From NCBI GenBank assembly GCA_010093705.1, contig MU006089.1:2219561-2283560 (forward strand): a stretch of 64,000 nt of DNA, written 5' to 3'. Positions 8,051 to 29,600 of the stretch are shown piece by piece (the first letter of the stretch is position 1; the number at the start of each line of letters is the position of its first letter). The notes beneath the pieces are model-generated. The model ran no database searches, was not told the DNA's origin, and saw nothing but the letters and a program-made list of their open reading frames with translations. This DNA comes from Patellaria atrata CBS 101060 (Eukaryota). The position numbers and the translations under genes were made by a program.

Positions 8051-11000
8051 TTACGATTCGCTTGGCCTGAATTCGTCCTTCAAAACCCACCTGCCCCTGC
8101 CAGAGCTGAGTCCCGGTTCCAGGTTAGCGATCCGGCGGAGCAGAGCCTTGAACTCCTCGATCCTCGCCGCATCGCCGTTCATCTGGTACTGGAAGTGGTT
8201 CGTGAGCATCCTGGAGGGAACTGAGCCGCCATGGAGGAGGATAAAGTCTCGCAGTTGGGCCAAGACCACCGTGGGCGGCTGACGGTTTCCCTGTAGAGGA
8301 ATGGCGGGGCGGCCGGGTGGTCCGCTTCCTGGGCGATTGGAAACGTTGCGTTGACCGCTTGACAGACGCGATAGGACTGCTGAGGATGAAGGGCCGCCGC
8401 GGCCACCGCGACCACCGCCTCGGACTGCAGGTGGAACCCGTTGAGTTGCTTGTGGATTCGGACGCGATAGAACTGCTGAGGGTGAAGGACCGCCGCGGCT
8501 ACCGCGACCACCGTCGCGTGGTGAAGGTGGAACCCATTGCTTTGACGGAGGACGGCCACTGACACCAAAGGCACCAGTCCAAGTTGGTGTCCCTGCAGGA
8601 ACGGTACGAGCGATTTCAGCGTTGCGTTGGAGCTCTTTAGCTGCTTCTGCGGCGACGCGTCTCGCTTCACGCGCGATATCCTCGGGATCGGCCTCAATCT
8701 TACGCTTGTCGCCGCTGTTAGAGGCGAGGATGGCGTCGTGTTCGAGCGCGGACTGGACGCCATTGCCAGCGAAAATGGCGGAGAGGAGGCGGTCGTTCCT
8801 GGAGCATGCATTCTCTTGTTTGGTGTCCTCATTATTGCGAAATTCTTCTTCACGCGCAACGGCGTGGATGTCTGCAATCTCGGTGTCAGTGGGCGGTGTT
8901 GGGATTCCTTCGCTCTGATCTTTGGAATCTTTATTGGAGAATTTGACTTCCGTGCCCTTGAAAATAGTGCTGGTCTCAGTCTCTCCATCATCTGAGCCCA
9001 AGGCAAACAAGTCATGCAAATCGCGCAACTGAAAAGTCTGGCGTTGTTTTGGATCTCGCAAAATCTTGTTCGATAGGAACTGTTTGAAGATCTGACGATG
9101 ATAAATCTTCTCCTCAATAGTGCCTGCGGTCATGAGACGGTAGACCTCGACTTCCCTCTTCTGACCTAAACGCCATGCTCGCTCACGTGCCTGCACATCC
9201 GTCGAAGGGTTCCAATCGGGGTCATAGATGATGATTCGATTCGCCCCGGTGAGGTTCACGCCGAGACCTCCGACCTTAGTGGTGAGAAGGAAGACATGCA
9301 TTTCGGAATCGTTATTGAAATCATCTACCATAGTCTGCCTGTCTTTAATCGCCGTCTTTCCATCCATACGACAGTAATTGAAACCATCCATCGATCTGAT
9401 CAGCTTCTCTAAGATGTCTATCGTAATACGATGTTGAGCGAACAAAAGAGCCTTATACCCGCCTTTCTTCCACGTTTCAAGCAGAGCTTTGACGACGTGC
9501 ATTTTCCCAGACTTGCTAATTCGTCCATAATCATAGTCACTCTTCTTAGAGAGGTTTTTGTGGTCAACGAGATCAGGATGGTTGCAGATCTTACGAAGTA
9601 TGTCGACGCCATACAAGGGCTGACGCCTGCCATTCATGATAGACTTCATTTCTTCCGAATTTAGGAAGATCTCATATGACTGTCGTTGTATTTTGGTCAG
9701 TTTGCAGAACAAGACTCGCTCACGCTTCTGAGGAAGATCAGTCGCCACGTCGACCTTATAGCGCTGGAGAAGGTACCCGCTAATGGTCTCCTTCAAGGTT
9801 TCCGCACATTTTATCGCGGTTTGGACCTGGAGATTCGAGGCATTCGCATAGCCTCCTATCTGAATTGGGATTCCAAACTGTGTACGAAAGCTGACGAGAG
9901 TACCAAGGCGCATTGGAAATACGAAGTCGAACAACGACCAGAGTTCCGTCAAATTGTTTTGCATCGGTGTACCCGACAATATGATCCGATTGGGCGTTTT
10001 AAGCTCCTTGCAGTAAATCGTGATACCTGCATTCGGGTTACGGATCTTATGGCCCTCGTCTAGAACTACGTATTGCCACTTAGTAGGTATGATATACTCC
10101 GCATAGCTCTGGAGACCTGTATATGTTGTAATTAATACGTGACCTTCCTTTATCGCTTTATCGACAATATCCTTGGCCACATTCGGGAACTTAGACGACC
10201 TCTTCACTTTTTCGTATGAGGAACCGGCTAGCTCGTCTTCACGGCGGGTTTCGCTTCGAATACTTACCATACCACTTCCAGAAGAATGTAGGATGGAGAC
10301 TCGGAGCGGAGGCCACCAGCGGTGGAATTCATTTACCCATTGCTTCATGACCGTAGCTGGGGTGACGATAAGAACAGGTTTCGTGAGCATCTTGGAGTAA
10401 TGTAAACCAGCTATGAATGAGATGGCTTGTATTGTCTTGCCAAGACCCATCTCGTCCCCTATGATTCCGCCGACCTGTTGAGAGTACAACTCCGAGAGCC
10501 ACTTAACGCCAGTCTTCTGGTAATCGAACAAACTGGGATAGATATCGCCTGGTATGCGTAAGCCGCCATCGAGCGTGGTATCAGGTATGCTGGGGTGTGG
10601 TAAATAGCATTCCTCGGCACCGCTCTCGAGTGCCTCTTCAAAAACTCCCTCAGCTGTGCTGGAATGTCCTGTTTCCCTAGCTACCCGCCTCGCTACACTT
10701 CGCCGTTCAATCCAGCTTCCTACCCTTATCTGAAATACTTTCTCATTGCCATCATCAATACCAGTTAGGTCTTCCACTTCGTCAGAATGAAACTTCTTTT
10801 TTTCCTTCCCGGCGGCCTTGCGTTTCCCGGAAGCCGGGATGGTATCCATGGGGAACATATCTTCAAAATCAACCTCGGAATCTTCCGATTCTCCTAATGC
10901 AGCTAGCTGGCGATCATTTAGCTCGGGCTCAAATTCATCATCGGAGCCGTCTCCTATAGATTCATTCAGGGTATCTGCAGTGCCATCCGGACGCTTTTGC

Positions 11001-11785
11001 TTCTTGATTGGTCGTTCAGCTGAGGACTTAGTTGCCCTGACATCTTCAAATCCAGGCTTGGTGAGGTTGCGATGTGACCTTGGCTGTTCGGCGCTTGTGA
11101 CTATAGGGTTTTCTTCTTCAATATCACTAACATCATCACCCATCTCCGCGTCAAGCATTGCTTCCTCTAGATTTGAGAATAGCCGAGCAGGTTTCCGGAC
11201 CTTGGAAAAAGGAGTGATTTTGCCAGTCCGGATAAGAAAGTCCCTCTCAGATTCGTGAGGCAACCGACCCTTACAAGTTTCCACATTTTCGGATCGAGGA
11301 TGAGCGTGACGCTCATCGATACGACTTTGAATTTGCTCGAGTTCCGTGTTGATACCATCAAGACGAGTTTGTGTCTGGAGAATATCTGAGCGTATCTTGT
11401 TCTTAACTGCAGAGCTGCCAGGTTGTAACAGACGCCGTTCCAGCGTGTTTAATTCTCCCGTGAGTCTCAGTTTCTGTACTTGCGTCTTTTCTAAGCGCTT
11501 TTTATCCCGCTCGTCAGCTTGTTCGGTGAGAATTTGGTCCGCTTGACGACCAATGTCCCGCTCCAAGTCATCTTGATCGCGAACCGACGTTCCAAGCAAG
11601 GCGAGCCTTGCCTCACCATCCAAATGGCTTCCAGCTGCCTCCAAATTTCCATTCTCGTCCTCTTCATTGTTGGTGATGGTCTCTATCAGCGATGTAGGGT
11701 TTTCAAAATTGATAGGGGCGACTCCCACTAGCTGATGCCCACTACCTTCAGTCGAGTGGTCTGGGCATGTCCCTGATTGTGACAT
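8051..11785 (-). CDS. RAD26: Transcription-coupled repair SNF2 ATPase Rad26/Rhp26 (CSB/ERCC6 homolog)
   Basis: Motifs 'ERDFLIRTGKITPF', 'GGIIGDEMGLGKT', 'LDEGHKIRN', 'GGYANASNLQV' and 'YDPDWNPSTDVQARERAWRLGQ', plus a C-terminal winged-helix-like 'FKALLRRIA...WVLK'. Likely ATG at 11785. Confidence 0.93.
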   Translation of the reverse strand: MSQSGTCPDHSTEGSGHQLVGVAPINFENPTSLIETITNNEEDENGNLEAAGSHLDGEARLALLGTSVRDQDDLERDIGRQADQILTEQADERDKKRLEKTQVQKLRLTGELNTLERRLLQPGSSAVKNKIRSDILQTQTRLDGINTELEQIQSRIDERHAHPRSENVETCKGRLPHESERDFLIRTGKITPFSKVRKPARLFSNLEEAMLDAEMGDDVSDIEEENPIVTSAEQPRSHRNLTKPGFEDVRATKSSAERPIKKQKRPDGTADTLNESIGDGSDDEFEPELNDRQLAALGESEDSEVDFEDMFPMDTIPASGKRKAAGKEKKKFHSDEVEDLTGIDDGNEKVFQIRVGSWIERRSVARRVARETGHSSTAEGVFEEALESGAEECYLPHPSIPDTTLDGGLRIPGDIYPSLFDYQKTGVKWLSELYSQQVGGIIGDEMGLGKTIQAISFIAGLHYSKMLTKPVLIVTPATVMKQWVNEFHRWWPPLRVSILHSSGSGMVSIRSETRREDELAGSSYEKVKRSSKFPNVAKDIVDKAIKEGHVLITTYTGLQSYAEYIIPTKWQYVVLDEGHKIRNPNAGITIYCKELKTPNRIILSGTPMQNNLTELWSLFDFVFPMRLGTLVSFRTQFGIPIQIGGYANASNLQVQTAIKCAETLKETISGYLLQRYKVDVATDLPQKRERVLFCKLTKIQRQSYEIFLNSEEMKSIMNGRRQPLYGVDILRKICNHPDLVDHKNLSKKSDYDYGRISKSGKMHVVKALLETWKKGGYKALLFAQHRITIDILEKLIRSMDGFNYCRMDGKTAIKDRQTMVDDFNNDSEMHVFLLTTKVGGLGVNLTGANRIIIYDPDWNPSTDVQARERAWRLGQKREVEVYRLMTAGTIEEKIYHRQIFKQFLSNKILRDPKQRQTFQLRDLHDLFALGSDDGETETSTIFKGTEVKFSNKDSKDQSEGIPTPPTDTEIADIHAVAREEEFRNNEDTKQENACSRNDRLLSAIFAGNGVQSALEHDAILASNSGDKRKIEADPEDIAREARRVAAEAAKELQRNAEIARTVPAGTPTWTGAFGVSGRPPSKQWVPPSPRDGGRGSRGGPSPSAVLSRPNPQATQRVPPAVRGGGRGGRGGPSSSAVLSRLSSGQRNVSNRPGSGPPGRPAIPLQGNRQPPTVVLAQLRDFILLHGGSVPSRMLTNHFQYQMNGDAARIEEFKALLRRIANLEPGLSSGRGRWVLKDEFRPSES

Positions 11786-12621
11786 GTTGGATACAGCGGC
11801 TAGGCTGTGAGAAATTAAATGAACGTCGATGCGTGCGCGAAGCGATGTTAACCAGTGGTTATTCGAAAGGAACGTTGTCGCGAAGAACGGGGTGGCGAGA
11901 GACGAAGTAAACAGTAGTAAACAAGCGGAAGTTTGAGCAAGATAGCTCCGCGACAATGTCGCTTATCGTGCCGTAGTGCCCCTCATCAGAAATTACGCGA
12001 GGGTTTGTGGAGCTTGAATACTCGAGGTTGTGAATAGAAAATGTGTGCGAAAGTGAATTGAAGAAAAACGCGCAGCAACGTGAATGTAGTTCGTCATTGC
12101 AGCCTTATTACGGCAGACCACGCAGGCCCTGTACGTCGGTGTCTCGGTTAGCTCTAGTGCATGATCACGTGTTCGGTAGAACTACGGATGAAGGAGCCGC
12201 CATCCCCTTAAACTCCATCGCCAGAAGGTAATTTGTCCCTTTCCCCTCATCTCAGCATCCTCACTTTACAAGGACTCCCATCTCTGTCTGAGCTTTCGGC
12301 TGAGCTTTGATTGAGGGATATCAAGCTTTAGTTTCTCCGTCCTGTCAGTCACGGTGATGGACGATCAATGGGAAGTATTGCACGTTTAGCCAATAATTTC
12401 ACCTTTTTGGCATCTCTCCATGTCAAGACTGTTCGATCTGAATATGACGGATTTACGTCTCTAAACTGCTCTTAATAGGTTTTACGAACTCCGCATATTG
12501 ATATTTTGCCATATACAGGGTAATTTACCTCCATAGCGTCTTAGAAGATGGTATATAAAAATGCACTCTCCTCTGGTCCTGCGATTACAAGTAAATCAGA
12601 AGTATACCATCCTCCGTCATC

Positions 12622-14031: not shown

Positions 14032-17000
14032 CTAAGTCTTCTTTCCCTTCCCCTTTTCCGCCTCACCCTTCAGCCCTCCCGCCTCACTGCTGACTCTCTC
14101 AGGCTCTATAACAGCCTCGACACAACCGCCAACCAGCCTTGCCCAAACTTCCCTACTCTCACCTTCCCCACCACTCAATGTCCCCTTGTCTCCCACGACA
14201 ACAACACCCCTTTTCGCCCTCGTCATCACGACGTTTATCCTCCTCAAGTCCTTCAAGAATCCCATCTCCCTGGACAAGTTGCACCTCGTCGTGGAAAAGA
14301 CAACATAATCTGCTTCCCGGCCTTGAAAACCGTCGATGCTTGAGATCGAGATCGAGGATGAAGATGGGATGAGGGAGGATAGGAGCGTGCGTTGTCGAGC
14401 ATAAGGGGTTAGGACGGCTATTGAGGGCGGAACGGGTGAAGATGGAGAGGAGGACTGGGAAGCAGGGCTCTGGAGGAGTTTGACGATGCGTTGACAAAGG
14501 AATGCTTGACCCTGATTTGATTTCGATGCGTTGCCGAGATCTTCGGGTGCGGAGCACTGCACGAAGACTCTACGGCCTGACACCGGCCAGGGAAACTGCG
14601 ACGGATGGAGTTCCCGCGCACTATCCGAAACACCAGTGCCAATTTTTTCGTAATAGAATTCCCTTGAGCTGAAGGAGGCGATATCCCTGTGCATGCGATA
14701 CTGCGTGTCGAGCATGATCTTGCTTACGTCCGGGCGTTCGGGGGCTTCGTACAGTCGCTCGAAGAGCGAGACGTCTAAACCGACTGCTAGAGCGCTCTGC
14801 TGCACCGTGGCACGCAACTGGACGTGGTCACCTACGATGACAGCGCGCTGGCACCCTTTAACAAGAGAAACGAGCGATGTTGGTTCGGTTTGCTGAGACG
14901 CTTCGTCGATGACAACAATGTCGAAATTTTCGTCGCGGAGGAGACCGAGTCCGGCGCCGATACAGGTACTGAAGATGATACGGCATTGTTTGATGAGCTT
15001 TTGGGCTTTGCGGCGAGCTTCGGGTTGAGCGTTGAGGTCTTTGCCGACCATGGCGTCGCAAGTGTGAGATTTTAGATCCTCTGCGACTTTTCTGACCTAG
15101 GCGATGTCAGTATCAGAGATAAATTTACTATTTATTGGATGCAAATTACATCTGTAGATACCCTTAGAGGTATTTCACCAGTTATCTCGGATCCCTTTTC
15201 GCTAATGAACTTCCGCAGTACATTATCAACCGCATTATGTGTTGGAGCGGCTACAAGAACACGCAGCGTTGGAGCCGCTATGAGCAGTTGCTGCAGAATC
15301 GCTACGACTGTGCGTGTTTTTCCAGTACCTGGCGGTCCCCAGAGGAACGTTAACGGAGAGGTTAGGGCCACTTCTAGAGCTCTATTCTGGCTATCGTTGA
15401 GCTCTTCATCTTTATGGTATTCAAGCTTCATTCCATACCGCTCAGTAGGCACATACGGTAACCCCGAGAGACTGAAGTACAGCGCGCAGCATTCCTCACG
15501 ACGAGTATACAGTGAAGTAACAGCATCGAAAGCGGTCTTCGCCGATGCAAAAGAGCCACACTTAATGACTGACCAAGAGCATTTCTCAATATAAGAAGGT
15601 AGATCGTGCAAGCACCGAAATACAACTTTACCGTGTTGACTGTTCTCAACAATCGCATCCATTGTATATGGCCTTGCTCCGGGTGAATTGGTCGGAATGC
15701 TGGCTGCTTTGAGCCTGACATGATCTCCAGTATTGAGGACGCCAGCAGAAGATGCATCGATGCGGAGACGACCTTCGACGTAACGTTTCTCATGATCGTT
15801 GACTGTAAGCTCTATTAACCCCTTTCTCTTAAGCCCACTTTGAGTCACCTCGTCAATATAATCCAGAGCAAGGCCAATGAGGTTCTTCACAAATTGTTTG
15901 ATAGCTGCTGGTCGGCCGATGAGTAGACGTATGCTTTCAGGCTCGAGGCAATTTTCACCCATCAGGAGGTCAAAAGCTAATTCTGATGAGCGCACAGTCA
16001 GTGCAATGAGCTCCACGGTCTGTGCGAAATCCTGGAATGAGATCTCCTTTAGTTCGGCTAATACGGCCTTGAATGGTTCAACTATAAGACCTTGCATGGT
16101 TGCGGCCGCGAGAATAAGAGATCTCAATAAAATGGGTGCGTCGAGCAGGAAGTCTTCCTGGAAATTAGTTTGGACCCCCTTCCATGTTTCAGACCTAAGA
16201 AGGAGGGCCGAAAGATAGGGGACATGTTGCAGAAAGTCCACTAGATACTTAATTAGGTCAATGAGTGAGAGCTCTTGGGGAATGTTATTCTTTGCATCTT
16301 CAAGCAAATGGTTGTAGATCGTCCTAATACGGGTTTTCTCGTCTCGATCTAGGAGCCAATAGAGTAGGTGATGTAACTCATTCATCGATCTAATATTCCG
16401 GAGCGCAGCTAGGTCATTATTCTTTACTACCTTAACCAAATATGGTGGTTCCTCAGTCCAATTGACGTTGCGCAGAGTAAGTACAGAGTACTCTCGAGCA
16501 ACCTCCTCGAACAGAGGAAGCGTTTCTTGAGTATCGATATACTGTAACCATAGATCTAGAGTAGCCAAAGCCCTGGTATCTCGATTACTGATGACGTAGA
16601 TCTCCTATAGATGGGATTAGCCTCCCCGATGGTTATTTAACCTATCAAGATACATACAGCTGCTTGAATCCCAGCGCGATTTAGTCTACCTACATGCCGT
16701 CGTATGGGCTCGCTTATCTTGTTCAAAGCTATACTCGCCACAAACTCATGATTAATTCCAGCATCAATGGTCTGTTGCTTTTGCCTTCGTTGATCACCTC
16801 TACTTGGAATGTTTTGGTAGCTAGACCTATCAGCGGCGGCACGATTAAGAAAGATCCAGGTATCTGCTCTCTTATCGTTGTATAGTTGGAATGTTGTGTC
16901 ATCACAATAAACTCGATAGTTCTTTTTTGTTGGGACTACACGATATTGCGCAGAATCGCTACCCTGCGAACGTGGTAAGGCGAAGACTCGAACACTACTA

Positions 17001-19401
17001 TCGACAACGCTCTCGGTCCTCTTTTCGATCTTGTTTGGAATGTATAGCGCCACTGTTAACCTTTGATCGACCTTCAAGATAATCATCTTCTTGTGGAATA
17101 GCTCTAGGATTTGATTTGTAGCACTCATAAATGATCCCATTCTATCTCTGGAACTATCGAAGACTCGTTTCCATCGCAACCCGGGGTAGTGCAGCTTGAA
17201 CTGAGATAATTCCTGCGAGTCAACAAGATTACTCTGAAGCATAGCATTCATGACTAAACATGATGATTCCATTGTTGGTGGAACCTTTCCTAAAGTCCAG
17301 GCTTTCTGTTCATCACTTAAGCTGTTGAAATCAAAATAGGGAAGCAAGTCTACAAAGTCGTAGTCATTTGCAGCGCACCATCTCAGAGCTATTAAAATAA
17401 GTTCAAACTCAGACATGGCGACATGATTCTTGCTCAAAAGAAACTGCATATCATCGAACGAATAAGTATTTTCAGAGAAATCTATTCGGTTTTTGATGAT
17501 TTGGGTGCCAGATTCGTGAAGAATATCAAGGACAAATTCCGGCTGATCAGGTCCGGGCTTTGGCGGGTCTTCCAATTGTGGTGGAACTCTGATGCGATTC
17601 CCGTCCACACATTGAGAAAACAGTCGGTTCAGCTGTTGGCATTCTGCGCTCATTGGACCTTTCAACCGGGCCCAGTCGAGGAATAGATTCTTTACACGCC
17701 CAAGAGACGCGTTAGAGTATCGCGCAAAGAACTCAATTCGGTCTTCCTCAGTCACTGCTTTGAATGTAACATGTTCCTTAGCGGCAGGATATTCCGCAGG
17801 TTCCGATACAGTACTTGGTACAAGGTCAGGATCCCAGCAAACAAAGACTACTGCAAAGGTTAGAAAATTTAAAATGCAAGGGTATGGAATTTCCTTACAC
17901 TTATCTCCATCTAGATCACCACCAGACATCATGTCTGCACTTGGTCTCTTCCCTTGTGTGGGAAAAACGATACAATCCACGAGGTGGGAGAGCTCCGGAT
18001 AATGTACCGTCTTGAATTTTTGTAAATCGCCCGGGTGCAAGCAAGGATTTCGAGTGACTAGCACTTCTGCATTCTTAAGCGTTTGAGGCTGACCGTCGAC
18101 GTCCATGGTAACTCGGACATAGCATTCACCTTGGCGAAGGATACCCCGAGGGTCACAAATTCCAAGGAGCAGTCTAGATTCCATGATGAGAATCCGAGAC
18201 CTTTGCTCATCCCTCTTGTTGAGCATCTTTGAATACTCTTGATTGACAAGCTTCTGCAGTGAGGTTTTGATTGAGCCCACGCCTTTGATAAGAAGTTCCT
18301 CTGCAAGATCTAAGCGGTCACAGAATGACAAGAACTGATAGGAAGTGCGAGGTTCCAAGAAAAACGCATTCGAGAGAAAGTCTAAATACTCAGCTTGCTT
18401 TCGAAGAAGGGTCTTGGTGGAGATTCCTAGAGCATGTAGTAATAGTATTACTTCGTCGTTCAAGTACCCAAATGCATACGGCTAGACTGTTAGCATCCAT
18501 ACCTCGAAACGTAGAGGGTTCCGATGGAGCTGATACTTACCTTTGAATATGCTACTGCAGAAAGAGATAGATCAGTGGCGTCGCGAAACTTTCTCATGGA
18601 ATCTCGGAATTGGACTAAAATCTGTCCTTTCAACAAGGGTTCCAGAGTCAAAACCCCTTTATAGCCACGGTATCTTATTTGATAGACGGACGGAAGATAT
18701 TTCTTATTGCGGAATGTAATATTTGACCCCTTGACAAGTAGTCTTGCCAAATGGGGTGATATGAGACCACAACCATCAGTGAAGGTATAGTCCTGGACTT
18801 CTATGTCTGCAATATCTTCGCATCGTGCTGGGTCTAGTTGTATGCCCATTTCCGTTGATGAAAACAGCAGTCCTATTCGCTTTGCTTTCTTTGCAGCTGT
18901 TTTCAGTTTCGAGAAGTCGCCCATAGACTCTACCTTTTGCTTAATCTCCTCTCGCGATGCAGCTAGGAGAAAGCAAGACCTTGACTTGAGCTGTGAATTA
19001 CTATGTCCGAAGAAGTTATAGTGAATATCATTGATAAAAATACCCCTTTGAAGGAGTCTTGAGATATAGTCTGCCGAGACTCTTGCTGGAACTGGCACCG
19101 TCTCATTCTGTGTCCCTTGGACTATCTGTCGTAACCGGAAGTCCGCAAAAGATATAAGTAGGATACTGGAAGAATGCTGGTTATTGGTAACTCGATTGGA
19201 AGGAAGAGTTTCCAAACGAATCATTATAGATTGCATTGATTTGTTTGACACGACGGATATGGCCTTGACTAATTTATGATGATCAAGCGCAAATGCTGTA
19301 GGAAGGTCATCGAGTTGATATTTCCATGATTGATCATTTACTTCAATGCGTTCCTGAAGAGTACGTTGGTACGCCCGAATGTTGCTCTTCTTAGGAGCCA
19401 T
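14032..19401 (-). CDS. RNA-dependent RNA polymerase (cellular RdRP, QDE-1/SAD-1 superfamily) fused to a C-terminal Upf1/Sen1-like SF1 helicase, ~1717 aa
   Basis: Introns at 18482-18540, 17848-17898, 16605-16657 and 15097-15149, all GT...branch...AG, give a 5154-nt CDS with no stops. RdRP motifs: FTDGCGLIS, QIRYRGYKG, RNPCLHPGD, DCIVFP, GGDLDGD. Helicase motifs: GPPGTGKT, APTHNAVD, DEASQ, GDHVQL, QYRM, DGFQGRE, RINVVMTRAK. Confidence 0.88.
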
Positions 19402-19694
19402 TCTTGTGGATGCTTGGAGAAATTGCTGAAAACAGACTATAAAAAAATCTTCGAGTTCAATGAGAATAGGAAGAAGGTAATCCAAAAGACAGATGCTGTA
19501 AGTGCAAACGAAGTGACTTATTTGAAAGATCAGATAGGGTATTTCTCCTCCACTTCAAACAAGCAAGGCTGAACCTACAGATAAGGTTACACTGCATGAG
19601 CGGGGAATAGGCAGAAGCAATCTTCCAAATTCGTGCCCCTGAAGTTCTTCGCATCTTCTAGTCAAGCACCGAACTATTCAAGTGGCTATTCAAT
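19402..19694. promoter_or_regulatory. Probable bidirectional promoter shared by the RdRP-helicase and AAA_28 genes
   Basis: Only 293 bp separate the divergent start codons (19401 minus, 19695 plus). Function is inferred from geometry alone. Confidence 0.5.
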
Positions 19695-20354
19695 ATGGAG
19701 CAACAAGTCAGAATCTATATCATTGGTGCTCAGTGCACAGGCAAGACCACACTTATCAATGCGCTGGAAACGCACTTCAGCGAACCGGTTAACCGCGATT
19801 GGGACGGTAACTCTTCCAACCCTCCAAATGTTATTAAGGAAGTCGCTAGAAGTGTTCTTCGTGAGCATAGTTTTATCGCAAGCGACATCACCAATTCGCG
19901 GACCAGATGTCTCCAGCTCCAGGAACTCATTCTCAAGGCGCAACACTCTGCAGAATTAGAAACAAACTGGAGTTGGTATTTGTCGGATCGTTCTGGACTG
20001 GACCCCGTGGTGTATGCCACAATTTACGTTGGTCCAGACGAAGCGATGGCACTCATGGAGAGCCAGGAGTTCCAGGAGCTGAAAGAGAGGATGCGGAACT
20101 CATTAGTTATTCTCTGTGAAGCTGGAGTACTCTGGTTAACAGACGATGGAGTGAGGTTGATGCCGAAGGATAACGAAGACTGGATGCGAGTTCATCAGAC
20201 ATTCTGCGAGTTGCTAGTACTCAACGATATTAGGTATAACGTCATTTCCAAAGACATGACAAATCTCGATGATCGTGTGCAGTTAGTGACCAAGCTTTGG
20301 AAAAACTTCAACGTGGATACTAGGAAATTAAGCGGATACATTGAAATGGAGTAA
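19695..20354 (+). CDS. NadR/Ttd14-type (AAA_28) P-loop NTPase, nucleotide-kinase-like
   Basis: Intronless 219-aa ORF. N-terminal 'RIYIIGAQCTGKTT' Walker A, plus 'EVAR', 'LSDRSGLDPVVYA' and 'DDGVR' motifs characteristic of the family. Confidence 0.8.
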   Translation: MEQQVRIYIIGAQCTGKTTLINALETHFSEPVNRDWDGNSSNPPNVIKEVARSVLREHSFIASDITNSRTRCLQLQELILKAQHSAELETNWSWYLSDRSGLDPVVYATIYVGPDEAMALMESQEFQELKERMRNSLVILCEAGVLWLTDDGVRLMPKDNEDWMRVHQTFCELLVLNDIRYNVISKDMTNLDDRVQLVTKLWKNFNVDTRKLSGYIEME

Positions 20355-20949: not shown

Positions 20950-23019
20950 ATGGCGCAGCCTATAGTGATTAGGGCGTCATCCCGACCTCAAGGTCCTCCT
21001 AGAAGAGAACCTATCAAGCGGTTGATACTGGCCTGTGATGGTGTGGCTCATCATACTAGTCCTTCAGTTCCACCAGCTTGTACTTACGAAGTATGATAGG
21101 GACGTGGTTAAACTCCGATAACACAAAGTTAAACGGAGAACTAGCCATCCCGAGCAATGTGACTAGAATCACCCGAGCTATCAAGCCGGAGAGTTCAGAT
21201 GGCACGCAACAGGTTGTCTTCTACCAGGAAGGCATTGCAACCATGGGAGGTATCTTCACCAGGGTTGTTGGAGGTAAGCAGACAAGAGCTAGGGATGACA
21301 GGTCCGATTCAGATCTGATGCGTTGTATCAGGTGCGATCGGGGCGGGAGTCCAGGAAAATGTTCGAGAAGGCTATTCATTCCTATGCAATAACTACCATC
21401 CGGGCGATGAAATAATCTTGTTGGGTTTCTCGCGGGGAGCATTTACCGCTCGTAGTATCGCAGGACTGATAGCTATCATTGGTCTTCTCACAAAGAAGGC
21501 ATTAAACTACCTTCCAGAGATACATAGGGATGTCCGTAATAGAAGGAAACGAGACTATAAACCCAAGAACCCGGACATTCCTTTCTCTAATAAACCAAGT
21601 GCGAATGACCCAGCTTATGCTCTTGAACTAGAAAGGGCAAGTATCCTTATCGTCAACAAGTCCTTCATGGCTGATAATTAATTCAGCGAGGAATGACATG
21701 GCTTAACGTATCCATCAAAGCAATTGGTGTCTGGGATACTGTAGGAACACTCGGGGTGCCTCGCGTAGGCCTTTTAAACCACCTCCCTATCCAGATGGAT
21801 GATTCCACACACTTCGAAGACACCAAATTAGGAAATCACATTGAAAACGCTTTTCAAGCTCTAGCATTGGATGAAGAGCGCACCAATTTTGCTCCATCTC
21901 TTTGGGAGAAGCCTCCAGGCTGTACAACAGTATACCTCCATTTCGTTGCTCTAAACCCCTCCCTCCAACACCCTGATGGCCCCTATCCCCACTTCAAAAT
22001 TTCTACCTTTATGAAACATATAAACTCTCTCGAACTGAATACTTTGCATTTTTCATATCTCCTATTTTCATCTCTTTATCACACTTCCTCCCCCTAATGC
22101 CTCCATCTCCCACTAACCCCTCTCCAAACAGACCCTCCGCCAAGTCTGGTTCCCCGGCGTTCACTCTAACATCGGCGGCGGCTATCAAGACTCCCAACTC
22201 GCCAACATAACCCTCGCCTGGATGATGTCGCAGCTTGCGCCCCTCCTCTCCCTCAACTATGACTACATCCTCCGCGAGGAGTCCTCAAACGCCGCCTACT
22301 ACCGCTCCACGCGGCAGAAAATCCGTCCCTGGTCCTTCGGCCGCATCTACGACTCGCTCTCCGGCCTCTACAACCTCGGCGGCGGCACCGCCCGCACCCC
22401 CGGCACGTACTACGCCACAGACCCGCGCGATCTCAACCCCACCGAGCGCCCGCTCAGGAACACGTGCGAGTACATACATCCCTCGGTGCGGACGCGGCTC
22501 AGGCTGGGCGGGCCCGGGATGGAGGATGAGGGCGTTTACGGGCCTGAAGCTCTGAAGGACTGGCGCCTCGTCGTAGAGTACCCGAACGACGATCCGGACC
22601 ACGGCGACCCGGATATCTACTGGCGCGCCCGCTTTCCCGAGAAGAGAGTCAGCACGCGTGTGCTCCCGGAAACCCCGTTGTGGGACGTCGAGCGCAGACT
22701 GCTGAGCCGCGACCCGGAGATGATGGATTACGTGATGTTTCCGCCGCCGACGAAGAAGAGGGGGGAGAGGCCTGTCTCGCTGTCCGGACCGGCGAGCGGG
22801 AGAGACGAGAGAAGAGGGGGAAGAAGGGAGGGTGGGGCAAGTGATTACGGTATCAATAGGGAGAGAGATAGAGATCGGGAGAGGAGGAGGTCGGAACCCC
22901 CGCCCTCGAGCTATCAGGAGTGGATGGATCAACAGCGACAGCAGCAGCAGCAACAGCCACAGAGACCCCGTTACTCGGATAGAGATAGGCCTGAGAGGTA
23001 TTATGCGAACCTGGAGTAG
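20950..23019 (+). CDS. DUF2235 (Tle1-like phospholipase catalytic domain) alpha/beta hydrolase
   Basis: Motifs 'KRLILACDGTW', 'SNVTRI', 'GFSRGA', 'GVWDTVG', 'FQALALDEER' and 'QVWFPGVHSNIGGGY'. Four introns, including 21637-21686 (GC-AG) and ~21930-22131. Confidence 0.88.
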
Positions 23020-24129: not shown

Positions 24130-25470
24130 TCACAAGCAATCCCCGAGCAGATCATCCAGCTCATCGAGCTCGATGTTTTCTGGATTTTTGAGATCGGACC
24201 AACCCCAGCCTTCTTGAAGCAATAGCTCCTCGCCCAATGGACCCCTGACATCCTCCATCTCATCTGCGAACGTGACCTTTTTGGGTTGAGGGGCTGGGGT
24301 CGGTTTGATCAGCGGACTGCTGGAGACACCTCTCATCGCAGATACGGAAAGGTGATCAGAACCGAACAGTGCGGCCGCGGCTTCCCTGTTACGTTGCGCC
24401 GCACGCTCCTCCGTCTCCTCGGTCGTCTCTAGCGGCGGGCCATCCATGGTGATCTCCGGTGTCCTATTTCCATCCATCGATGCTTTATTTTCTAATTCTC
24501 TGCTCTTGCGCCTTTGCTGGAGTGAGCTGGCGGTCTGCGTAAACTCGCGTTCGTCTCGTTCCAGCGGAGGACTGACGGCGCGACGGTTATGAGAGTGATT
24601 ATTCGAGGAAGGTGGATGCGTCCCATCGCGGGATATGGAGCCATGCCTTGAGAATTGATCGCTTGTAGACTCGTCTTCTAGCTCTGGAGAGCTTAGATCT
24701 ACTTCTGGCGAAGGTGAGAGTTGTGCGCGCTCGCGAGCATCTGAGAATGCTTCCTCATCGTCATCAGCCGCAGACGAAAGCGACGGTGAAATGATGCGAC
24801 TCGCAGCTGCCGGAGTTGTAGGAGGTTCGGGGAAGTCTTGTCGCGGGCAGTTGGTCAGGTAGAAGTACATACGCTTAGGGTGGGTGCCAATGAGCTCTTT
24901 GCCGAGCGGGCATCGAGCTAATGCACTCCATGGTCTGCGCAAGTATATTGAAAGTCGATTCGAGATGATTGCAGCAGGATTTGCGGAGCTGTACGGATTG
25001 TTAGCGATGTCCGTGAAGCCAAGCGTATGGTTGTGCATGTCATACCTTTGGACAATGGGGACAGTATTGGAGAGCACAGCAGCGAGTTCTTTGACCAGAT
25101 GAGGTCTGTTACCCGTCTTTTCTAGTTGTTCAATGACACCGACCACGATATCATCATCGATGCCTCGCGTGTCGACTTTGTACCCTCCCGCGTCGCCCGG
25201 AGATGGTGGCGGGGTCTGTTCCGCCACCCGGCCTGCACTCACCGGACGTTCATTTCGAATGGCAATACTTGAGGATTTGGGTGGACTCTTGGGCGACGGT
25301 GAAGTAGCTGACAGTAAGCTGTGCGACCTCTTCACTTTTTTTGAAGGTGGTTGATCGTTGGAGGTGGTGCTAGGCGGTGAGCGGTGGGATGACGATCGCG
25401 AGCTATCCTTGGGAAGCTGGATACCGAGCGATGGCAAGGACAATGACTTTCTCCTTGTATTGTACGGCAT
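24130..25470 (-). CDS. GDS1-like winged-helix domain protein
   Basis: 'MPYNTRRKSLSLPSLGI' start and 'SANPAAIIS-RL...CPL-KELI--HPKRMYFYLT' core, ending in the 'PENIELDELDDLL' tail. In-frame intron at 24989-25045. Confidence 0.7.
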   Translation of the reverse strand: MPYNTRRKSLSLPSLGIQLPKDSSRSSSHRSPPSTTSNDQPPSKKVKRSHSLLSATSPSPKSPPKSSSIAIRNERPVSAGRVAEQTPPPSPGDAGGYKVDTRGIDDDIVVGVIEQLEKTGNRPHLVKELAAVLSNTVPIVQRYDMHNHTLGFTDIANNPYSSANPAAIISNRLSIYLRRPWSALARCPLGKELIGTHPKRMYFYLTNCPRQDFPEPPTTPAAASRIISPSLSSAADDDEEAFSDARERAQLSPSPEVDLSSPELEDESTSDQFSRHGSISRDGTHPPSSNNHSHNRRAVSPPLERDEREFTQTASSLQQRRKSRELENKASMDGNRTPEITMDGPPLETTEETEERAAQRNREAAAALFGSDHLSVSAMRGVSSSPLIKPTPAPQPKKVTFADEMEDVRGPLGEELLLQEGWGWSDLKNPENIELDELDDLLGDCL

Positions 25471-28222
25471 TTTGGGGTACAGATGGAGATGGTGATTGAG
25501 ATTGAAATAATGATGATATGGTGGATGAAGATCGGTATGAGGCGAAAATGTTATGCTCTGTTCCTCTCACTTGTCAACTGATCGTTGTCGCGCGACCGGT
25601 AGAAGAGGTTAGGTTTTCTTTAGTGTCGATTTTCCTGGGGGAGTTTGTTGTGCTGGATGGAAGAAATTGGTAACCCTTGCTTTTCGGGTGATGTTATTGG
25701 TTGCCGCAGGAACTTTTGGAATGCACAACGGTCAGACGGTGAGACTGGTCCTTGCCTAAAGCATCAATCGCATATGCGGGCCTCAGACCTCTAATCCCGG
25801 TCCTAAACAGAAAAAAAAAGTTGGAGTGTCAAAATCTTTTTGCCTGATGTTGTAAAACGACAGGACAAAGTATTGGTGAGGGGAGTTTGTCGCAGAGGTG
25901 ACGGCAAAGAATAAAGATCAAAGGTTTCCGTTTATTGCGGCGGCGAATCCTTTCAGGGGAGAAATATGAATGGTAAACGGACAGCTTCGATGACAGCTGG
26001 TCCACGTAACTTGGTATTGGGAGCACTCAAAACGTCGACCCGCAACCTTGAGCTTTTTCTATGCGCCACTACTGCAGAAACGTAGATGACTGAAGTTGTT
26101 GCAGCTAAAAGTGGAGATGTCAAGCCAAGATGGATTCGATGGAAGAAGATGTGATGGACGATGAAGATGCAAGTCCAAGAAGATGATGTTGGGATGGGAA
26201 AGTCGAAGGTTGGATGGAGGGGAAGAGAGATGCACGGAAAGAAGGGGGGGGGGGGGCCGTTGGTGGTGAGAGGAGGATGAGGGATGGGAATTGGGAAAGG
26301 GCAAAAGCATCTCAAGAGGTCAAGATGGAAGGAAGGCATGGGGGAGAATGGATGGGGGAGAATGGATTTGGGGGCACAGACGGGGGCAGACTGGGCTCTA
26401 CGGTATGGTTCACTACTGGCGGCTGGTTGCACTGCGCTACGGGGTAAAAAGGGTGCCCCTACTGGTCCATTTGCTGGAATACTGGGGGTATTAAGGGCTA
26501 CGGAAGTTGTGGAAACCTGCACAGAAGGAACGAAAATGTTTAATGGCAGAAAGTACGAAACGCCCGACCTGGCAAGCTGGGCAGCGAGGGCTTCGCTAGT
26601 ATCAAAATAGTAACGACTCAACTCCATACTTAGGCGAAGGCGTACAGCATGCAAGGCTCATCATAACCCAAACAGCGACCACTTCGGATTCCTACTTTTG
26701 TCTGCTGCCAGCAACCTAAGTCGGATTATCGCTTTATGGCACATCTTAAGACAAAGAACATAAGTCAAGATAGCATGTCCAATGATTACGTCTTCTTATA
26801 GGAAACCTTCGGAATCTAACGAAAGTCTACTGGATAGTAAGGAATACTACCGTATTAGGCGTCAGCGTAAAGGTTCAAACTGCCCCTACACCATTTCATA
26901 GACTATCTGGGGTACATAACGATTTTCTTTGTCTGATACCTGGTTCTTTTATCTCTCACGTGCGAAGAGAACACGGAACCTTGAAGCAATATATCGGAAG
27001 AAATCAAGTTGGATGTCTGATCGTGTGCGTGGTAGCCTTGAGAAAAACACCGTAGCCCCTATGACGATGCTGATAGACGGGAGTTGTTTTATTTCATAGT
27101 GCTGCCTTAACTATATACAGTAAACAAAGGTGAAGATCCGATGTATTTTGCATCACTGACTGACAAACGTCGTCGAGCATCACCACAGAGACGGAAACAC
27201 CACACATCGCCGCATCTTGGGATTTTCGGATTTCTTCCTTTGTCCCTTTTGGCATGCTTGAAGCCATTAACCCCTGCCGGCTTCAAGTTTAGGCTCCTCG
27301 CCCTAATGTAAATACTTAAATAGTGTCACACGGCGCCCACTTAGGCACAGCCGCTACACTGTCCCGTAAAACCGTCAAATCGTCCGGCGCACATGGAATG
27401 AAGAAAAAACGAACCTTTTTTTCCCCTTGGGCTTGTTGGCCGTTCAGGCCGTGCCTTTGGTGTCTTTGATGCTTTTTTTGTGCCTCTTTTTGGCTTGTGA
27501 CGGGAAACTCTTTTGCCCGTTGCCCCTCTCAGCCCCTCTATATCCTTTTTGGCTCGGAATATCCAACCGAATCTTCTCAACAATGAAAAGAAAAGACCAC
27601 GTTTTGGTATGCCGTATCCCAAGACGCAGATTGCCTTCGTTGTCAACAAATCTCATAACTTGTCACACATCCAATATTGACTATTCCCGTTGATGGTGTT
27701 GTAAACCTAGGGATGACTGCAGAAAGAGAGAGTGATGTAAGACAGCCGGTGAGAGCTCTGACCAGTAGTCTAGATTGACAGTGATACTGTGATAAGGTTG
27801 CGATAGATGATTATATCCCCCAAGTTTCCACATCGTAACGTCTTCCAGCTCACTGGACAGCTAAGCGTCATTACTTTCAAGTTAAACGACGTCTGTCTGC
27901 ATCCGCGTGAATCGGGAAGTGGATTCCTTTAAGCTGATTACTGATGTTGTGTAGCGAGTCATCAGTCGTGTGCCCGCTGCCGCTCCATCACACCAACAAA
28001 GAAACTTTCCGGGACCTGCATCTCTAGTCTCTAATCCATCATTCGCGGAGGAGATGCGATGTTGATCTTTTTGAGCCCCCGTGCGTACTTCCGGATACTC
28101 ACCTCGGTTCGTGTAGATCGGTCCGGACAAAAACCTGAATATGGGACGGAAGTGAAGAAGTGATGTCGATAGTCCAATAGTTGGTTTCGAACTCTCGGTA
28201 AGATTAGACGAAATATCATGGA

Positions 28223-29206: not shown

Positions 29207-29600
29207 CAATTCGGTATAGAGATGTCCCGCAAAGGGCGTTGTGGTGTAAGGTAGCAGAGTCAATTGCTGCAAGTCTCTCACGTGAGGAGTACGTTACGCT
29301 GTGTGATGTGGTCAATCGACGAATTAGCGTCCAATCGATGGTGTTGCAAATGGTGTTGTAAATGTTTCGTCGCGGTTTAGAGATCGAACTTTGATATCAA
29401 GCTACATTAGGACGCCAAGTTTGACCGACGTTTTCCGTCACTTCCATCTCAACCTCCAACCATCGAACAGCCGATAACGCACCAGCTCGGGGATTTTTAA
29501 AAGATGAATTCCGTATCTCCTAATCTTTATATAATACCTATGTATCTTCTCTTTACTTTTGTGAATGTGTCGGATAGTTATGGGGATATATTAAAGGACA

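Follow-up and report, generated by a model that had tools for sequence, protein, structure and literature searches.

A divergent RdRP-helicase and AAA_28 kinase-fold gene pair conserved among filamentous ascomycetes

Introduction

The RDRC of Schizosaccharomyces pombe consists of Rdp1, Hrr1, and Cid12; in it, as with SAD-1 and SAD-3 in Neurospora, an RdRP works with two further proteins, namely an SF1 helicase and a small third enzyme. The cast of fungal RNAi known so far comprises RdRP, Dicer, Argonaute, QIP, and the SAD proteins. In vertebrates, a nucleotide kinase gene (CMPK2) adjoins the gene of an antiviral enzyme (viperin), and the two are co-induced. A further RdRP clade, the fourth, is represented by FgRdRp5 (FGSG_09076) of Fusarium graminearum, to which a phenotype was assigned only recently. 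According to the accessible text of PMC11237814 and PMC4515635, FgRdRp5 forms a branch apart from QDE-1, SAD-1, and RRP-3 and nearer the plant RDRs; PMC11237814, in the same portion, links it to small RNAs and ascospore discharge and cites Hrr1 and SAD-3 as RNAi helicases. FgRdRp5 may be non-critical for hairpin-RNA silencing (PMC4870495, available part), and knockouts of Cryphonectria parasitica RdRPs, which belong to other clades, are described as lacking an antiviral phenotype (PMC4182546, available part).

Here, we analyzed a stretch of 64,000 nucleotides from Patellaria atrata CBS 101060 (the window), in which a large RdRP-helicase gene and a small AAA_28 gene lie head to head. In contrast to RDRC and SAD-1/SAD-3, polymerase and helicase are predicted to form one polypeptide; furthermore, the helicase is nearer Upf1/Nam7 than ZNFX1, and the third enzyme has a kinase fold and is not a nucleotidyltransferase. 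By its architecture and size, the large gene is a predicted member of the FgRdRp5 class: in both proteins the RdRP is followed by a DEAD-like/AAA_11 helicase and then AAA_12, the lengths are 1,721 (FgRdRp5) and 1,718 aa, and FgRdRp5 has the same head-to-head P-loop neighbor, of 217 aa. Fusarium proteins are ~38 to 40% identical to exon 4 of the window gene, matches to Fusarium proteins other than that of F. graminearum have E values of 1e-90 to 1e-92, and dozens of proteins of ~1,650 to 1,850 aa have the same Pfam set. This class has already been described; the pairing itself is, within the reach of our searches, new. The accessible parts of the FgRdRp5 papers (PMC11237814 and PMC4515635) mention neither the neighbor gene nor a TLDc-like domain nor a shared promoter. 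Literature searches returned nothing relevant on AAA_28 with RdRP, on FGSG_09077 identifiers, on TLDc with fungal RdRP, or on a bidirectional promoter with RdRP, P-loop, and mycovirus, and the literature on RdRp5 and mycovirus held nothing on the neighbor gene.

Results

Positions of all features are collected in the table. The sequence-only reading had placed the two genes 293 bp apart, and Pfam together with our gene model confirmed both the positions and the distance.

Table 1. Features of the gene pair and its surroundings (positions within the window)
Feature	Position	Strand	Remarks
RdRP-TLDc-like-helicase gene	14032..19401	-	5 exons, 1718 codons + stop
Exons of the large gene	19401-18541, 18481-17899, 17850-16658, 16604-15150, 15096-14035	-	splice sites read from sequence
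Stop codon of the large gene	14034-14032	-	
RdRP domain PF05183	17513..19224	-	Pfam, E 2.4e-46 and 2.2e-62
Catalytic DLDGD of RdRP (DxDGD loop)	17917-17903	-	read from sequence
TLDc-like beta domain	16587..17248	-	interrupted by intron 3 (16657-16605); coordinates mapped via P0125 alignment
All-alpha domain, no family assignment	15849..16577	-	P0125 model helices 434-676
Beta-barrel before helicase core, Upf1/SETX 1B-type position	15552..15824	-	P0125 model strands 685-775
Upf1-like SF1 helicase core, AAA_11 + AAA_12	14035..15551	-	Pfam
Helicase motif I GPPGTGKT	15338-15315	-	
Helicase motif II DEASQ	exon 5	-	
Intergenic region, presumed bidirectional promoter	19402..19694	.	293 bp ATG to ATG
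GTTACAC element	19586..19592	+	102 nt upstream of AAA_28 ATG
AAA_28 (NadR RNK-like) P-loop gene	19695..20354	+	intronless, 219 aa, Pfam PF13521
P-loop GAQCTGKT	19725-19748	+	
DUF2235/Tle1-like hydrolase	21060-23019		multi-exon, right-hand neighbor

The large gene was assembled from four stop-free blocks on the minus strand between 14032 and 19554. Its introns of 59, 48, 53, and 53 nt are all of the GT..AG type, and each has a branch site (CTAAC, CTAAT, or CTGAC). A gene-model artefact was rejected, as all four splice junctions fit the consensus of 39 full-length homologues; the alignment with the homologue P0125 runs unbroken over the exon 3/4 junction. PF05183 scored 159 and 212 bits (cutoff, 23.8), and in the DLDGD motif the L, the second D, the G, and the third D are invariant across the 39 homologues, the first D nearly so. 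The nearest solved structure of the RdRP is Arabidopsis RDR2 (E = 7.7e-29), with QDE-1 reaching only 6.5e-13, which agrees with the placement of FgRdRp5 nearer the plant RDRs. The helicase matched AAA_11 (E = 4.1e-17 and 2e-22; 63 and 81 bits) and AAA_12 (E = 2e-48; 165 bits) above the cutoff of 27, and among solved structures it comes closest to Nam7/Upf1 (E = 5.6e-44), ZNFX1 being weaker (7e-23). GPPGTGKT and DEASQ are both invariant across the 39 homologues. The catalytic motifs of polymerase and helicase are thereby intact throughout.

Between polymerase and helicase lie three further regions, which were delineated on the AF2 model of P0125. Residues 220 to 433 gave as the top six of 48,161 chains only TLDc domains (NCOA7B, Z = 13.2; OXR2, 12.9; mEAK7, 12.1; TBC1D24, 11.0; Oxr1, 10.7; Rtc5p, 10.6), and Foldseek matched the segment to the NCOA7-AS TLDc domain at a TM of 0.58. 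The spacer segment matches in its fold the TLDc proteins NCOA7, OXR1/Oxr1, TBC1D24, mEAK7, and Rtc5p over 146 to 166 residues, but at ~10% identity. On exon 3 of the window gene, the Pfam TLD model (PF07534) scored 17 bits (E = 0.006) and so fell short of its cutoff of 24.5, with a sub-threshold match at the same place in 2 of 9 proteins scanned. These proteins act on the V-ATPase, according to the titles of the matched entries, whereas the TLDc-like segment has no apparent V-ATPase link. The presence of a TLDc-like domain within an RdRP-helicase was unexpected, and this architectural link escapes Pfam annotation. The helices that follow (residues 434 to 676; pLDDT mostly 82 to 92) had middling structural matches and no Pfam match. 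SETX, Sen1, Upf1, ZNFX1, and Aquarius align to model residues 611 to 927 with Z scores of 8.2 to 10.6 (SETX, Sen1, and Upf1 alone, 9.1 to 10.6), a span that takes in the barrel (residues 685 to 775) along with its surroundings. An ESM Atlas search with exon 4 returned AAA_11 helicase clusters only and none for the middle domains, and PADLOC had no family for exon 3 or the AAA_28 protein.

The small protein matched PF13521 with an E value of 3.5e-24 (86.3 bits; cutoff, 27), and across 34 homologues its motifs GAQCTGKT, SDRS, and DDGVR show little or no variation. The best structural match of its AF2 model (pLDDT, 91.5) was a NadR kinase domain (Z = 19.2; rmsd, 2.6; 179 aa), another NadR reached a Z of 17.2, and Foldseek (E = 7e-6; TM, 0.64) and a profile match (E = 2.2e-5) also led to NadR, the P-loop, E.AR, the Walker-B Asp, and W..DDG.R being common to both. 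The NadR RNK domain (PDB 8x7f, 6gye, and 1lw7) belongs to the same Pfam family and has the same fold; however, identity is 15 to 19%, and the small protein is a stand-alone eukaryotic protein without an NMN adenylyltransferase or HTH domain. A further difference from the NadR RNK domain is the SDRS motif, which resembles the DR(Y/S) motif known from thymidylate and deoxynucleoside kinases. That it is the trifunctional NadR proper was rejected, since it has 219 aa, a single domain, and no fused NMN adenylyltransferase; the NCBIfam NadR models scored 23 and 17 bits on it against cutoffs of 341 and 201. All of the top 30 structural matches are small-molecule kinases, with NadR, thymidylate, and deoxynucleoside kinases at Z scores of 12.8 to 19.2. 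The sole tRNA kinase stands at rank 31 (Z = 10.7), and no polynucleotide 5'-kinase of the T4 Pnk or Clp1 type was among the best 50. As the fold comes nearest to that of the NadR ribosylnicotinamide kinase, phosphorylation of a nucleoside or nucleotide would be the most likely activity of the protein. Action on RNA ends, which had been suggested from the sequence, finds no support in this comparison. Relatives of the protein are named 'nicotinamide riboside kinase' at JGI.

The intergenic region is short in other lineages as well (estimated ATG-to-ATG gaps of 194 to 619 bp; 233 bp in F. graminearum). The heptamer GTTACAC is found in 14 of 23 nonredundant intergenic regions of the pair, 13 times in the same orientation as in the window and 10 times at 98 to 152 nt from the AAA_28 side. 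Its density is 1.84 per kb there and 0.048 per kb elsewhere in the same loci, a difference of ~38-fold. GTTACAC is a candidate cis-element for a fungal antiviral transcription program. The unrelated hydrolase genes that the sequence-only reading had seen on both sides could be verified on the right (DUF2235/Tle1-like); on the left there is nothing but a weak BNR/Asp-box hint (E = 0.0026).

To follow the pair beyond the window, 80 metagenome loci anchored on AAA_28 were collected; 8 without an AAA_28 tblastn match at E 1e-5 were dropped, and clustering of the remaining 72 at 95% nucleotide identity left 50 clusters. Of these, 10 are distant nonfungal types, 13 of fungal type do not reach far enough upstream, and 27 were testable. 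RdRP exon 1 lies immediately upstream on the opposite strand in 22 of the 27 testable fungal lineages. The other five are L043, L050, L052, and L057, which have no upstream RdRP, and L038, in which an AAA_28 relative is divergent from an ORF resembling only the middle domains. Of 11 ORFs flanking the pair in the window, none matched any of the 80 loci, and comparing 9 representative loci in all 36 combinations revealed no flank similarity. With the divergent pair present in 22 of 27 lineages and not one flanking gene in common, the adjacency exceeds chance; both chance adjacency and general macrosynteny were rejected on these counts.

Named genomes carry the arrangement in Leotiomycetes and Sordariomycetes. 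Locus tags are consecutive in Cudoniella (G7Y89_g9545/g9546), Oculimacula (VTL71DRAFT_5358/5359), and Colletotrichum (CORC01_14095/14096); in 10 further named genomes both genes are putatively on the same contig, and in the sole named genome of the Dothideomycetes (Lophium) the evidence is a shared contig only. The available supplements of PMC5907747 place FGSG_09077 (minus) and FGSG_09076 (plus) of F. graminearum head to head, describe FGSG_09077 as a 217-aa P-loop NTPase encoded by a 653-bp intronless gene, and have the F. venenatum orthologues as consecutive. We equated FGSG_09077 with the AAA_28 orthologue by size, P-loop annotation, intronless gene, and position. The RdRP gene thus travels with the AAA_28 gene in at least four ascomycete classes, two of them from named genomes with proven adjacency and the others from nearest-match metagenome loci. 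Over 14 loci, the pairwise distances of one protein correlate with those of the other (r = 0.86), as would fit co-inheritance. Fusions, for which a search had also been suggested, were not found: the best 150 of 371 representatives had 76 to 455 aa and included no AAA_28-RdRP or AAA_28-helicase fusion. At least 15 species of Trichoderma, and Claviceps as well, have AAA_28 orthologues, and no Trichoderma or Claviceps protein was among the best 120 of 204 RdRP-helicase matches; AAA_28 may therefore also exist without the RdRP-helicase partner.

Published expression data from F. graminearum support co-regulation of the two genes in this one species. In Table S1 of PMC4071046, the log2 fold changes of FGSG_09076 under FgV1, FgV2, FgV3, and FgV4 are -2.1 (not significant), 4.8, 3.8, and 3.4, and those of FGSG_09077 are -1.3 (not significant), 5.7, 5.3, and 2.5 (P = 0.11, not significant). 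For FGSG_09075, the neighbor on the other side, that table shows no significant change under any of the four viruses. Within the FgV2 top-up block, FGSG_09077 has rank 10, beside RNAi genes (Table S2 of the same paper), and both genes rank among those most strongly induced by mycoviruses in this species. During sexual development both fall into Mfuzz group 9 of 10 and rise 14.6-fold and 15.3-fold, as given in Table S3 of PMC5310905; we calculated a correlation of their log2 values of r = 0.95 (n = 6) from that table. The supplements of PMC6028722 and PMC11237814 have no row for either gene. Linkage in 22 of 27 lineages and co-expression in F. graminearum are the opposite of the unlinked, independently expressed genes that would have spoken against the sequence-only reading.

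Discussion

Our data point toward a module of two genes that filamentous ascomycetes (Pezizomycotina) have conserved and regulate together, with the kinase tied to the function of the RdRP-helicase, a reading to which we give a probability of roughly 60%. The small gene is thus a likely, so far overlooked partner in fungal RNA defense and a concrete new component that can be tested. In our model, the first gene encodes an RDR2-like RdRP of the DLDGD type, joined via TLDc-like, helical, and beta-barrel parts to a Upf1-like 5'-3' RNA helicase, and the second a stand-alone protein of the NadR ribosylnicotinamide-kinase type with a nucleoside/nucleotide-kinase fold; both would be driven by a short bidirectional promoter with GTTACAC. 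The helicase may load on and translocate along a target RNA, which the polymerase would turn into dsRNA for Dicer-dependent small RNAs. The kinase would work in trans on a nucleoside or nucleotide and not on RNA ends, and it may supply, license, or tune the nucleotide of the polymerase. CMPK2-viperin offers a comparison in logic only, its proteins being of other families and viperin a radical-SAM enzyme. Whereas our analysis shows the anatomy of the genes, the retention of the pair, and the promoter element, an antiviral or silencing role of the pair would derive from the published work on FgRdRp5 and not from the window gene, and we infer that the two proteins may act together biochemically. 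Against the module reading stand the five lineages that lack the arrangement, the lack of fusions among the best 150 representatives, co-expression data from a single species, and the published results on hairpin-RNA silencing and on the C. parasitica knockouts, the latter in other RdRP clades.

A compact bidirectional promoter that responds to stress or virus could also be all that the genes share, their products being unrelated and the kinase serving, for example, NAD or nucleotide salvage during stress. Divergent pairs can stay together via a common promoter without a common function, and the short intergenic regions with their conserved element, the closeness of the fold to NadR ribosylnicotinamide kinase, the JGI names, the lack of fusions among the best 150 representatives, and the AAA_28 genes of Trichoderma and Claviceps, with no partner among the best 120 RdRP-helicase matches, would fit such an arrangement. 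We nevertheless regard it as rather unlikely, because the pair alone is retained at ~50% protein divergence while none of the 36 flank comparisons is positive, which exceeds typical fungal microsynteny. Furthermore, a housekeeping salvage enzyme would not have such a profile, with tenth place in induction by FgV2 and RNAi genes next to it, and the AAA_28 relative in L038 is again divergent, there beside the mid-domain-like ORF.

The same locus, which pairs AAA_28 with the mid-domain region alone, suits the idea that the small protein binds the large one, perhaps via the TLDc-like or the helical domain, and either gates helicase and polymerase as a switch dependent on NTP or phosphorylates the 5'-OH RNA ends of templates or products. 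Conserved pairing and co-expression are compatible with a bound subunit, ~690 residues of conserved noncatalytic domains in the large protein could dock it, and the fly AAA_28 protein Ttd14 is said to be a GTP-binding regulator and not a kinase. However, what the small protein has in common with NadR (P-loop, E.AR, D, and W..DDG.R) is the motif set of an active nucleoside kinase, and the structural ranking, with small-molecule kinases ahead of the tRNA kinase throughout, argues against RNA ends as the substrate, so that we consider either variant distinctly improbable. A predicted-binding run with P0141 residues 596 to 1290 and P0020, in which the tool left the alignments unused, scored 0.05 against a mark of 0.34, which favors neither binding nor its absence. 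Any two genes can adjoin, but chance neighborhood in one genome without wider meaning is next to negligible, given that the arrangement is kept in 22 of 27 lineages as well as in six named genomes, in four of them with consecutive locus tags and in two according to supplement tables.

The module reading can be taken further. AAA_28 may be an obligate, so far unrecognized enzymatic partner of the RdRp5-type protein in virus-inducible RNA defense, making or licensing a nucleotide, possibly an NAD-related or otherwise noncanonical initiating one, with the TLDc-like domain as a docking or sensing module; we put this forward as a speculative possibility. If true, polymerase, helicase, and nucleotide kinase would make up a self-contained immune cassette kept since the radiation of the Pezizomycotina. 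As Fgrdrp5 deletions and complementations lie 233 bp from the start codon of the neighbor, they may also have changed the expression of FGSG_09077.

Results

The divergent gene pair in the window

In the window, two genes, both intact and with their catalytic motifs conserved, form a divergent pair that has been selectively kept over deep divergence and shares a conserved promoter element. We interpret it as part of RdRP-based RNA silencing or defense, with a newly recognized conserved accessory gene. The RdRP-helicase gene lies within four stop-free blocks of the minus strand between 14032 and 19554 and has Pfam matches to RdRP (E = 2.4e-46 and 2.2e-62), AAA_11 (E = 4.1e-17 and 2e-22), and AAA_12 (E = 2e-48). 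Its five exons comprise 1718 codons and are separated by introns of 59, 48, 53, and 53 nt, each bounded by GT..AG and having a branch site of the CTAAC type. All four junctions agree with the consensus from 39 full-length homologs (in order, with a slash at the junction: ..YSK/PY.FG.., ..DLDGD./..VCWD.., ..AA/EIYVISNRD.., and ..RVST./VRKVAEDL..). The AAA_28 gene was identified with Pfam (E = 3.5e-24; 86 bits, cut-off 27), and its product shares at most 57% identity with any other database protein.

The sequence-only reading had placed an RdRP-helicase gene and an intronless AAA_28 gene on opposite strands with starts 293 bp apart, and both ORFs and Pfam matches bear this out. Its statement that they lie between hydrolase genes is borne out on the right, where a multi-exon DUF2235/Tle1-like hydrolase gene follows; on the left, a weak BNR/Asp-box match is the sole hydrolase sign. 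None of the SNF2, DUF3433, GDS1, methyltransferase, and FAD-oxidoreductase neighbors was found again beside the pair in other loci.

Positions of features in the window and in metagenome loci anchored on AAA_28 (L handles)
Feature	Sequence	Position	Strand	Remark
RdRP-helicase exon 1	window	19401-18541	-	splice sites from sequence
RdRP-helicase exon 2	window	18481-17899	-	splice sites from sequence
RdRP-helicase exon 3	window	17850-16658	-	splice sites from sequence
RdRP-helicase exon 4	window	16604-15150	-	splice sites from sequence
RdRP-helicase exon 5	window	15096-14035	-	splice sites from sequence
RdRP-helicase stop codon	window	14034-14032	-	read from sequence
Intergenic region	window	19402-19694		293 bp, ATG to ATG
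GTTACAC element	window	19586-19592		102 nt ahead of AAA_28 ATG
AAA_28 gene	window	ATG 19695 to stop 20354	+	intronless, 219 aa
DUF3433 ORF	window	1-1236	+	
SNF2-family ATPase	window	8051-11962	-	single 1303-aa open block
GDS1 winged-helix ORF	window	24130-25566	-	
Methyltransferase ORF	window	28223-29293	-	
FAD-oxidoreductase ORF	window	29943-31286	+	
AAA_28 paralog near NPHP3_N/NACHT and DUF7791 ORFs	L043	1206-5860		38% identity
AAA_28 divergent from exon-4-like ORF	L038	397-2497		42% identity
Rearranged copy	L055	1-2184		RdRP missing
Rearranged copy	L031	3218-3314		exon 3 equivalent absent
In-frame stop	L033	7352-7354		inside exon-3 equivalent

Conservation of the pairing

Metagenome contigs were scanned with an AAA_28 alignment, and 80 loci, including as much as 10 kb of flank in either direction, were retained and searched with the five window exons. 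Eight loci (L073-L080) had no AAA_28 match at E = 1e-5 and were excluded; the remaining 72 formed 50 clusters at 95% nucleotide identity. Ten clusters carried distant marine or bacterial-type AAA_28 genes (25-36% identity) without RdRP, and 13 fungal-type clusters with less than about 640 bp upstream were left out of the count, so that 27 were judged. In 22 of these, RdRP exon 1 lies directly upstream on the opposite strand, at an estimated ATG-to-ATG distance of 194 to 619 bp, and the later RdRP exons succeed in order as far as the contig reaches. The adjacency that had been predicted for AAA_28 and the RdRP-AAA_11/AAA_12 clade is the usual arrangement in the lineages judged. General synteny can be rejected as its cause, because both flank controls were empty: 0 of 11 window flank ORFs matched any of the 80 loci, and nine representative loci, compared in 36 pairs over about 4 kb and 10 kb of flanking sequence, yielded no pair with flank similarity at E = 1e-8. 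With these controls and the pairing in 22 of 27 lineages, chance adjacency is effectively refuted.

The sequence-only reading had suggested a check for co-inheritance: pairwise protein distances of AAA_28 and RdRP (means 0.48 and 0.43) correlate across 14 loci (r = 0.86), which is what joint vertical inheritance would give. By their closest named relatives, which are nearest matches and not identifications, the loci belong near Sordariales, Xylariales, Helotiales, Pleosporales, Geoglossales, and lichen-forming fungi. In named genomes, the locus tags of the pair are consecutive in Cudoniella acicularis (g9545/g9546), Oculimacula yallundae (5358/5359), and Colletotrichum orchidophilum (CORC01_14095/14096), and in 10 further cases both proteins come from contigs of equal size. 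In Fusarium graminearum PH-1, the RdRP-helicase gene FGSG_09076 (chromosome 4, 7638366-7643698, plus strand) is head-to-head with FGSG_09077 at a distance of 233 bp, and the F. venenatum orthologs of both are consecutive (PMC5907747 supplement). FGSG_09077 is presumed to be the AAA_28 ortholog from its size, annotation, lack of an intron, and position and from a 217-aa AAA_28 protein of F. oxysporum.

The five judged lineages without the arrangement count against the preferred reading. L050 has a frameshifted AAA_28 gene, L052 a FAD-binding ORF upstream, and L057 only a short AAA_28 fragment, and in L043 a paralog directly follows NPHP3_N/NACHT and DUF7791 ORFs on their strand. In L038, AAA_28 is divergent from an ORF that matches only the helical and barrel region of exon 4 (27-36% identity to its middle region), and the 1.9 kb of upstream sequence contains no RdRP; on this short contig, the neighbor may be a paralogous partner with middle domain and helicase only. 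A further point against is that many Trichoderma species and some of Claviceps have listed AAA_28 proteins, and no RdRP-helicase of either genus was among the best 120 of 204 exon-4 matches.

A shared promoter element

Among 23 non-redundant intergenic regions of the pair (22 loci and the window), the 7-mer GTTACAC (extended form GTTACACAAC) occurs in 14, versus at most 9 for the most widespread 7-mer in 200 shuffles. It is oriented with the AAA_28 coding strand at 13 of 14 sites and lies 98 to 152 nt from the AAA_28 side at 10. Its density is 1.84 per kb compared to 0.048 per kb in the rest of these loci and the window (336 kb), and a count of 14 regions was never reached in 200,000 background-rate simulations. 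Part of the recurrence reflects shared descent, because some loci are related; the sequence around the element has diverged between loci. A second short word, CCCCGC/GCGGGG, is present in 11 of the 23 regions, often adjoining GTTACAC; in the window, it follows within 20 nt.

Co-expression in F. graminearum

The predicted co-induction by mycoviruses was recovered for FgV2 and FgV3 in published F. graminearum data (PMC4071046 Table S1). The log2 fold changes after infection with FgV1, FgV2, FgV3, and FgV4 were −2.1 (not significant), 4.8 (P = 5e-5), 3.8 (P = 4.5e-4), and 3.4 (P = 0.016) for FGSG_09076 and −1.3 (not significant), 5.7 (P = 1.25e-3), 5.3 (P = 8.5e-4), and 2.5 (P = 0.11) for FGSG_09077. 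The Zn2Cys6 gene on the other side, FGSG_09075, gave 2.2, 1.8, 0.7, and 2.0, all not significant. FGSG_09076 has been described as strongly upregulated under FgV2 and FgV3 (PMC4071046), and FGSG_09077 is tenth in the block of genes most upregulated under FgV2, right after FgRdRp3 (PMC4071046 Table S2).

Both genes also fall into group 9 of 10 expression groups in wild-type RNA-seq of sexual development, an earlier study re-analyzed in PMC5310905 (Table S3). Over six time points, the values are 74, 549, 541, 1079, 1084, and 768 for FGSG_09076 and 95, 920, 1081, 1437, 1449, and 565 for FGSG_09077, with maxima of 14.6-fold and 15.3-fold (r of log2 values = 0.95, n = 6). Two data sets thus support joint induction by virus and in sexual development; that they come from one species is a point against the preferred reading. 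FGSG_09077 is also among the small RNA-producing genes, with sense and antisense counts, in a table from which FGSG_09076 is absent, and its degradome tag density over the coding sequence is about four times that of FGSG_09076 (PMC5310905 Tables S7 and S12). The published Fgrdrp5 deletion and complementation constructs (PMC11237814) act no farther than 233 bp from the neighbor's start codon (chromosome 4, 7638132-7638366); expression of the neighbor may be altered in these strains.

Domain architecture of the large protein

The RdRP-helicase fusion itself is already known. FgRdRp5 (FGSG_09076) is placed on a branch separate from QDE-1, SAD-1, and RRP-3, is induced about 10-fold at sporulation and at the sexual stage, and is needed for ex-siRNA accumulation and for normal ascospore discharge (47.6% of the wild type otherwise), as stated in PMC4515635 and PMC11237814. 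Among the best 120 of 204 exon-4 matches, dozens of proteins of about 1650 to 1850 aa, belonging to Leotiomycetes, Sordariomycetes (Fusarium among them), Dothideomycetes, and lichen-fungus assemblies, have the identical domain set. The window protein has the RdRP catalytic loop DLDGD and the helicase motifs GPPGTGKT (I) and DEASQ (II), which are invariant or nearly so across 39 homologs. The closest solved structures are Arabidopsis RDR2 for the RdRP part (E = 7.7e-29; QDE-1 is well behind at 6.5e-13) and Nam7/Upf1 for the helicase (E = 5.6e-44), followed by SETX, IGHMBP2, DNA2, Sen1, and ZNFX1 (7e-23).

The roughly 690 conserved residues in between have no above-threshold Pfam match. They were modeled with the homolog P0125 (927 aa), to which window exons 3 and 4 align unbroken, and 46 relatives (mean pLDDT 78.9), and the model was compared with 48,161 solved chains by a structure search independent of Foldseek. 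For residues 220-433, the top six chains are all TLDc domains: NCOA7B (Z = 13.2, rmsd 2.9 over 154 aa), OXR2 (12.9), mEAK7 (12.1), TBC1D24 (11.0), yeast Oxr1 (10.7), and Rtc5p (10.6). SETX, Sen1, Upf1, ZNFX1, and Aquarius rank after them, on residues 611-927. Foldseek concurs, with Upf1 on top and the NCOA7-AS TLDc domain at TM 0.58, and a sub-threshold Pfam TLD match (E = 0.006; 17 bits versus 24.5) lies at the same place in window exon 3 and recurs in one of eight homologs scanned. From the Pfam domains and the structural matches of the model, the predicted order is RdRP, helical linker, TLDc-like domain, all-alpha domain, beta-barrel, and Upf1-like helicase. The TLDc-like and helical domains may serve as docking surfaces.

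The small protein and how the pair may work

The alignment of 34 AAA_28 homologs has an invariant P-loop, GAQCTGKT, and the motifs E.AR, SDRSG.DP, and CE..W..DDGVRLMP. The AlphaFold model (pLDDT 91.5, pTM 0.87) best matches the NadR kinase domain (Z = 19.2, rmsd 2.6 over 179 aa; another at Z = 17.2; Foldseek E = 7e-6), followed by thymidylate kinases, deoxynucleoside kinases, herpesviral thymidine kinases, and AbmG (Z = 12.8-15.8). At the sequence level, the family profile likewise recovers NadR (E = 2.2e-5) and aligns P-loop, E.AR, Walker-B Asp, and W..DDG.R. These matches place the small protein in the nucleoside/nucleotide kinase fold, as a member of the NadR-RNK type. It is not NadR itself, since the adenylyltransferase domain is missing and its scores with the NCBIfam NadR models stay far under their cut-offs.

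The FgRdRp5 phenotype suggests that the polymerase-helicase would turn selected RNAs into double-stranded RNA that feeds Dicer-dependent small RNAs. The co-expressed kinase may work on a free nucleoside or nucleotide and so supply, license, or tune the input of the polymerase. A small-molecule substrate is preferred because every one of the top 30 structural matches is a small-molecule kinase and the protein has catalytic motifs in common with NadR. That the kinase-fold protein is instead a bound regulatory NTPase or acts as a kinase on RNA ends is the less probable of two unlikely alternatives. The other, to which we give slightly more weight, is that the promoter alone joins the genes, with the kinase engaged in NAD or nucleotide salvage in stress. 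No AAA_28 protein fused to RdRP or helicase was found among the best 150 of 371 representative relatives (all 76-455 aa), which weighs against the preferred reading of a kinase that serves the polymerase. So does the absence of an antiviral phenotype on deletion of other fungal RdRPs, as reported in PMC4182546. In open papers and preprints, the scope of our search, with most subscription journals outside it, we found no report of the constant kinase-fold neighbor, the shared promoter element, or the TLDc-like domain of the FgRdRp5 class; these may be in print elsewhere.

Other settings of AAA_28 genes

Two loci hold rearranged copies, L055, in which a C-terminal AAA_28 fragment abuts exon-4-like sequence, and L031; they could be deletions, pseudogenes, or assembly artifacts. 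Introns 3 and 4 are absent from L033, and its in-frame stop could reflect a pseudogene, a sequencing error, or a small intron. The NACHT/DUF7791 ORFs of L043 represent an NLR-like gene and thus a second, different immune-type setting for AAA_28 kinases. In P0360, a representative relative of 339 aa, AAA_28 is joined to a Ricin-type beta-trefoil lectin domain.
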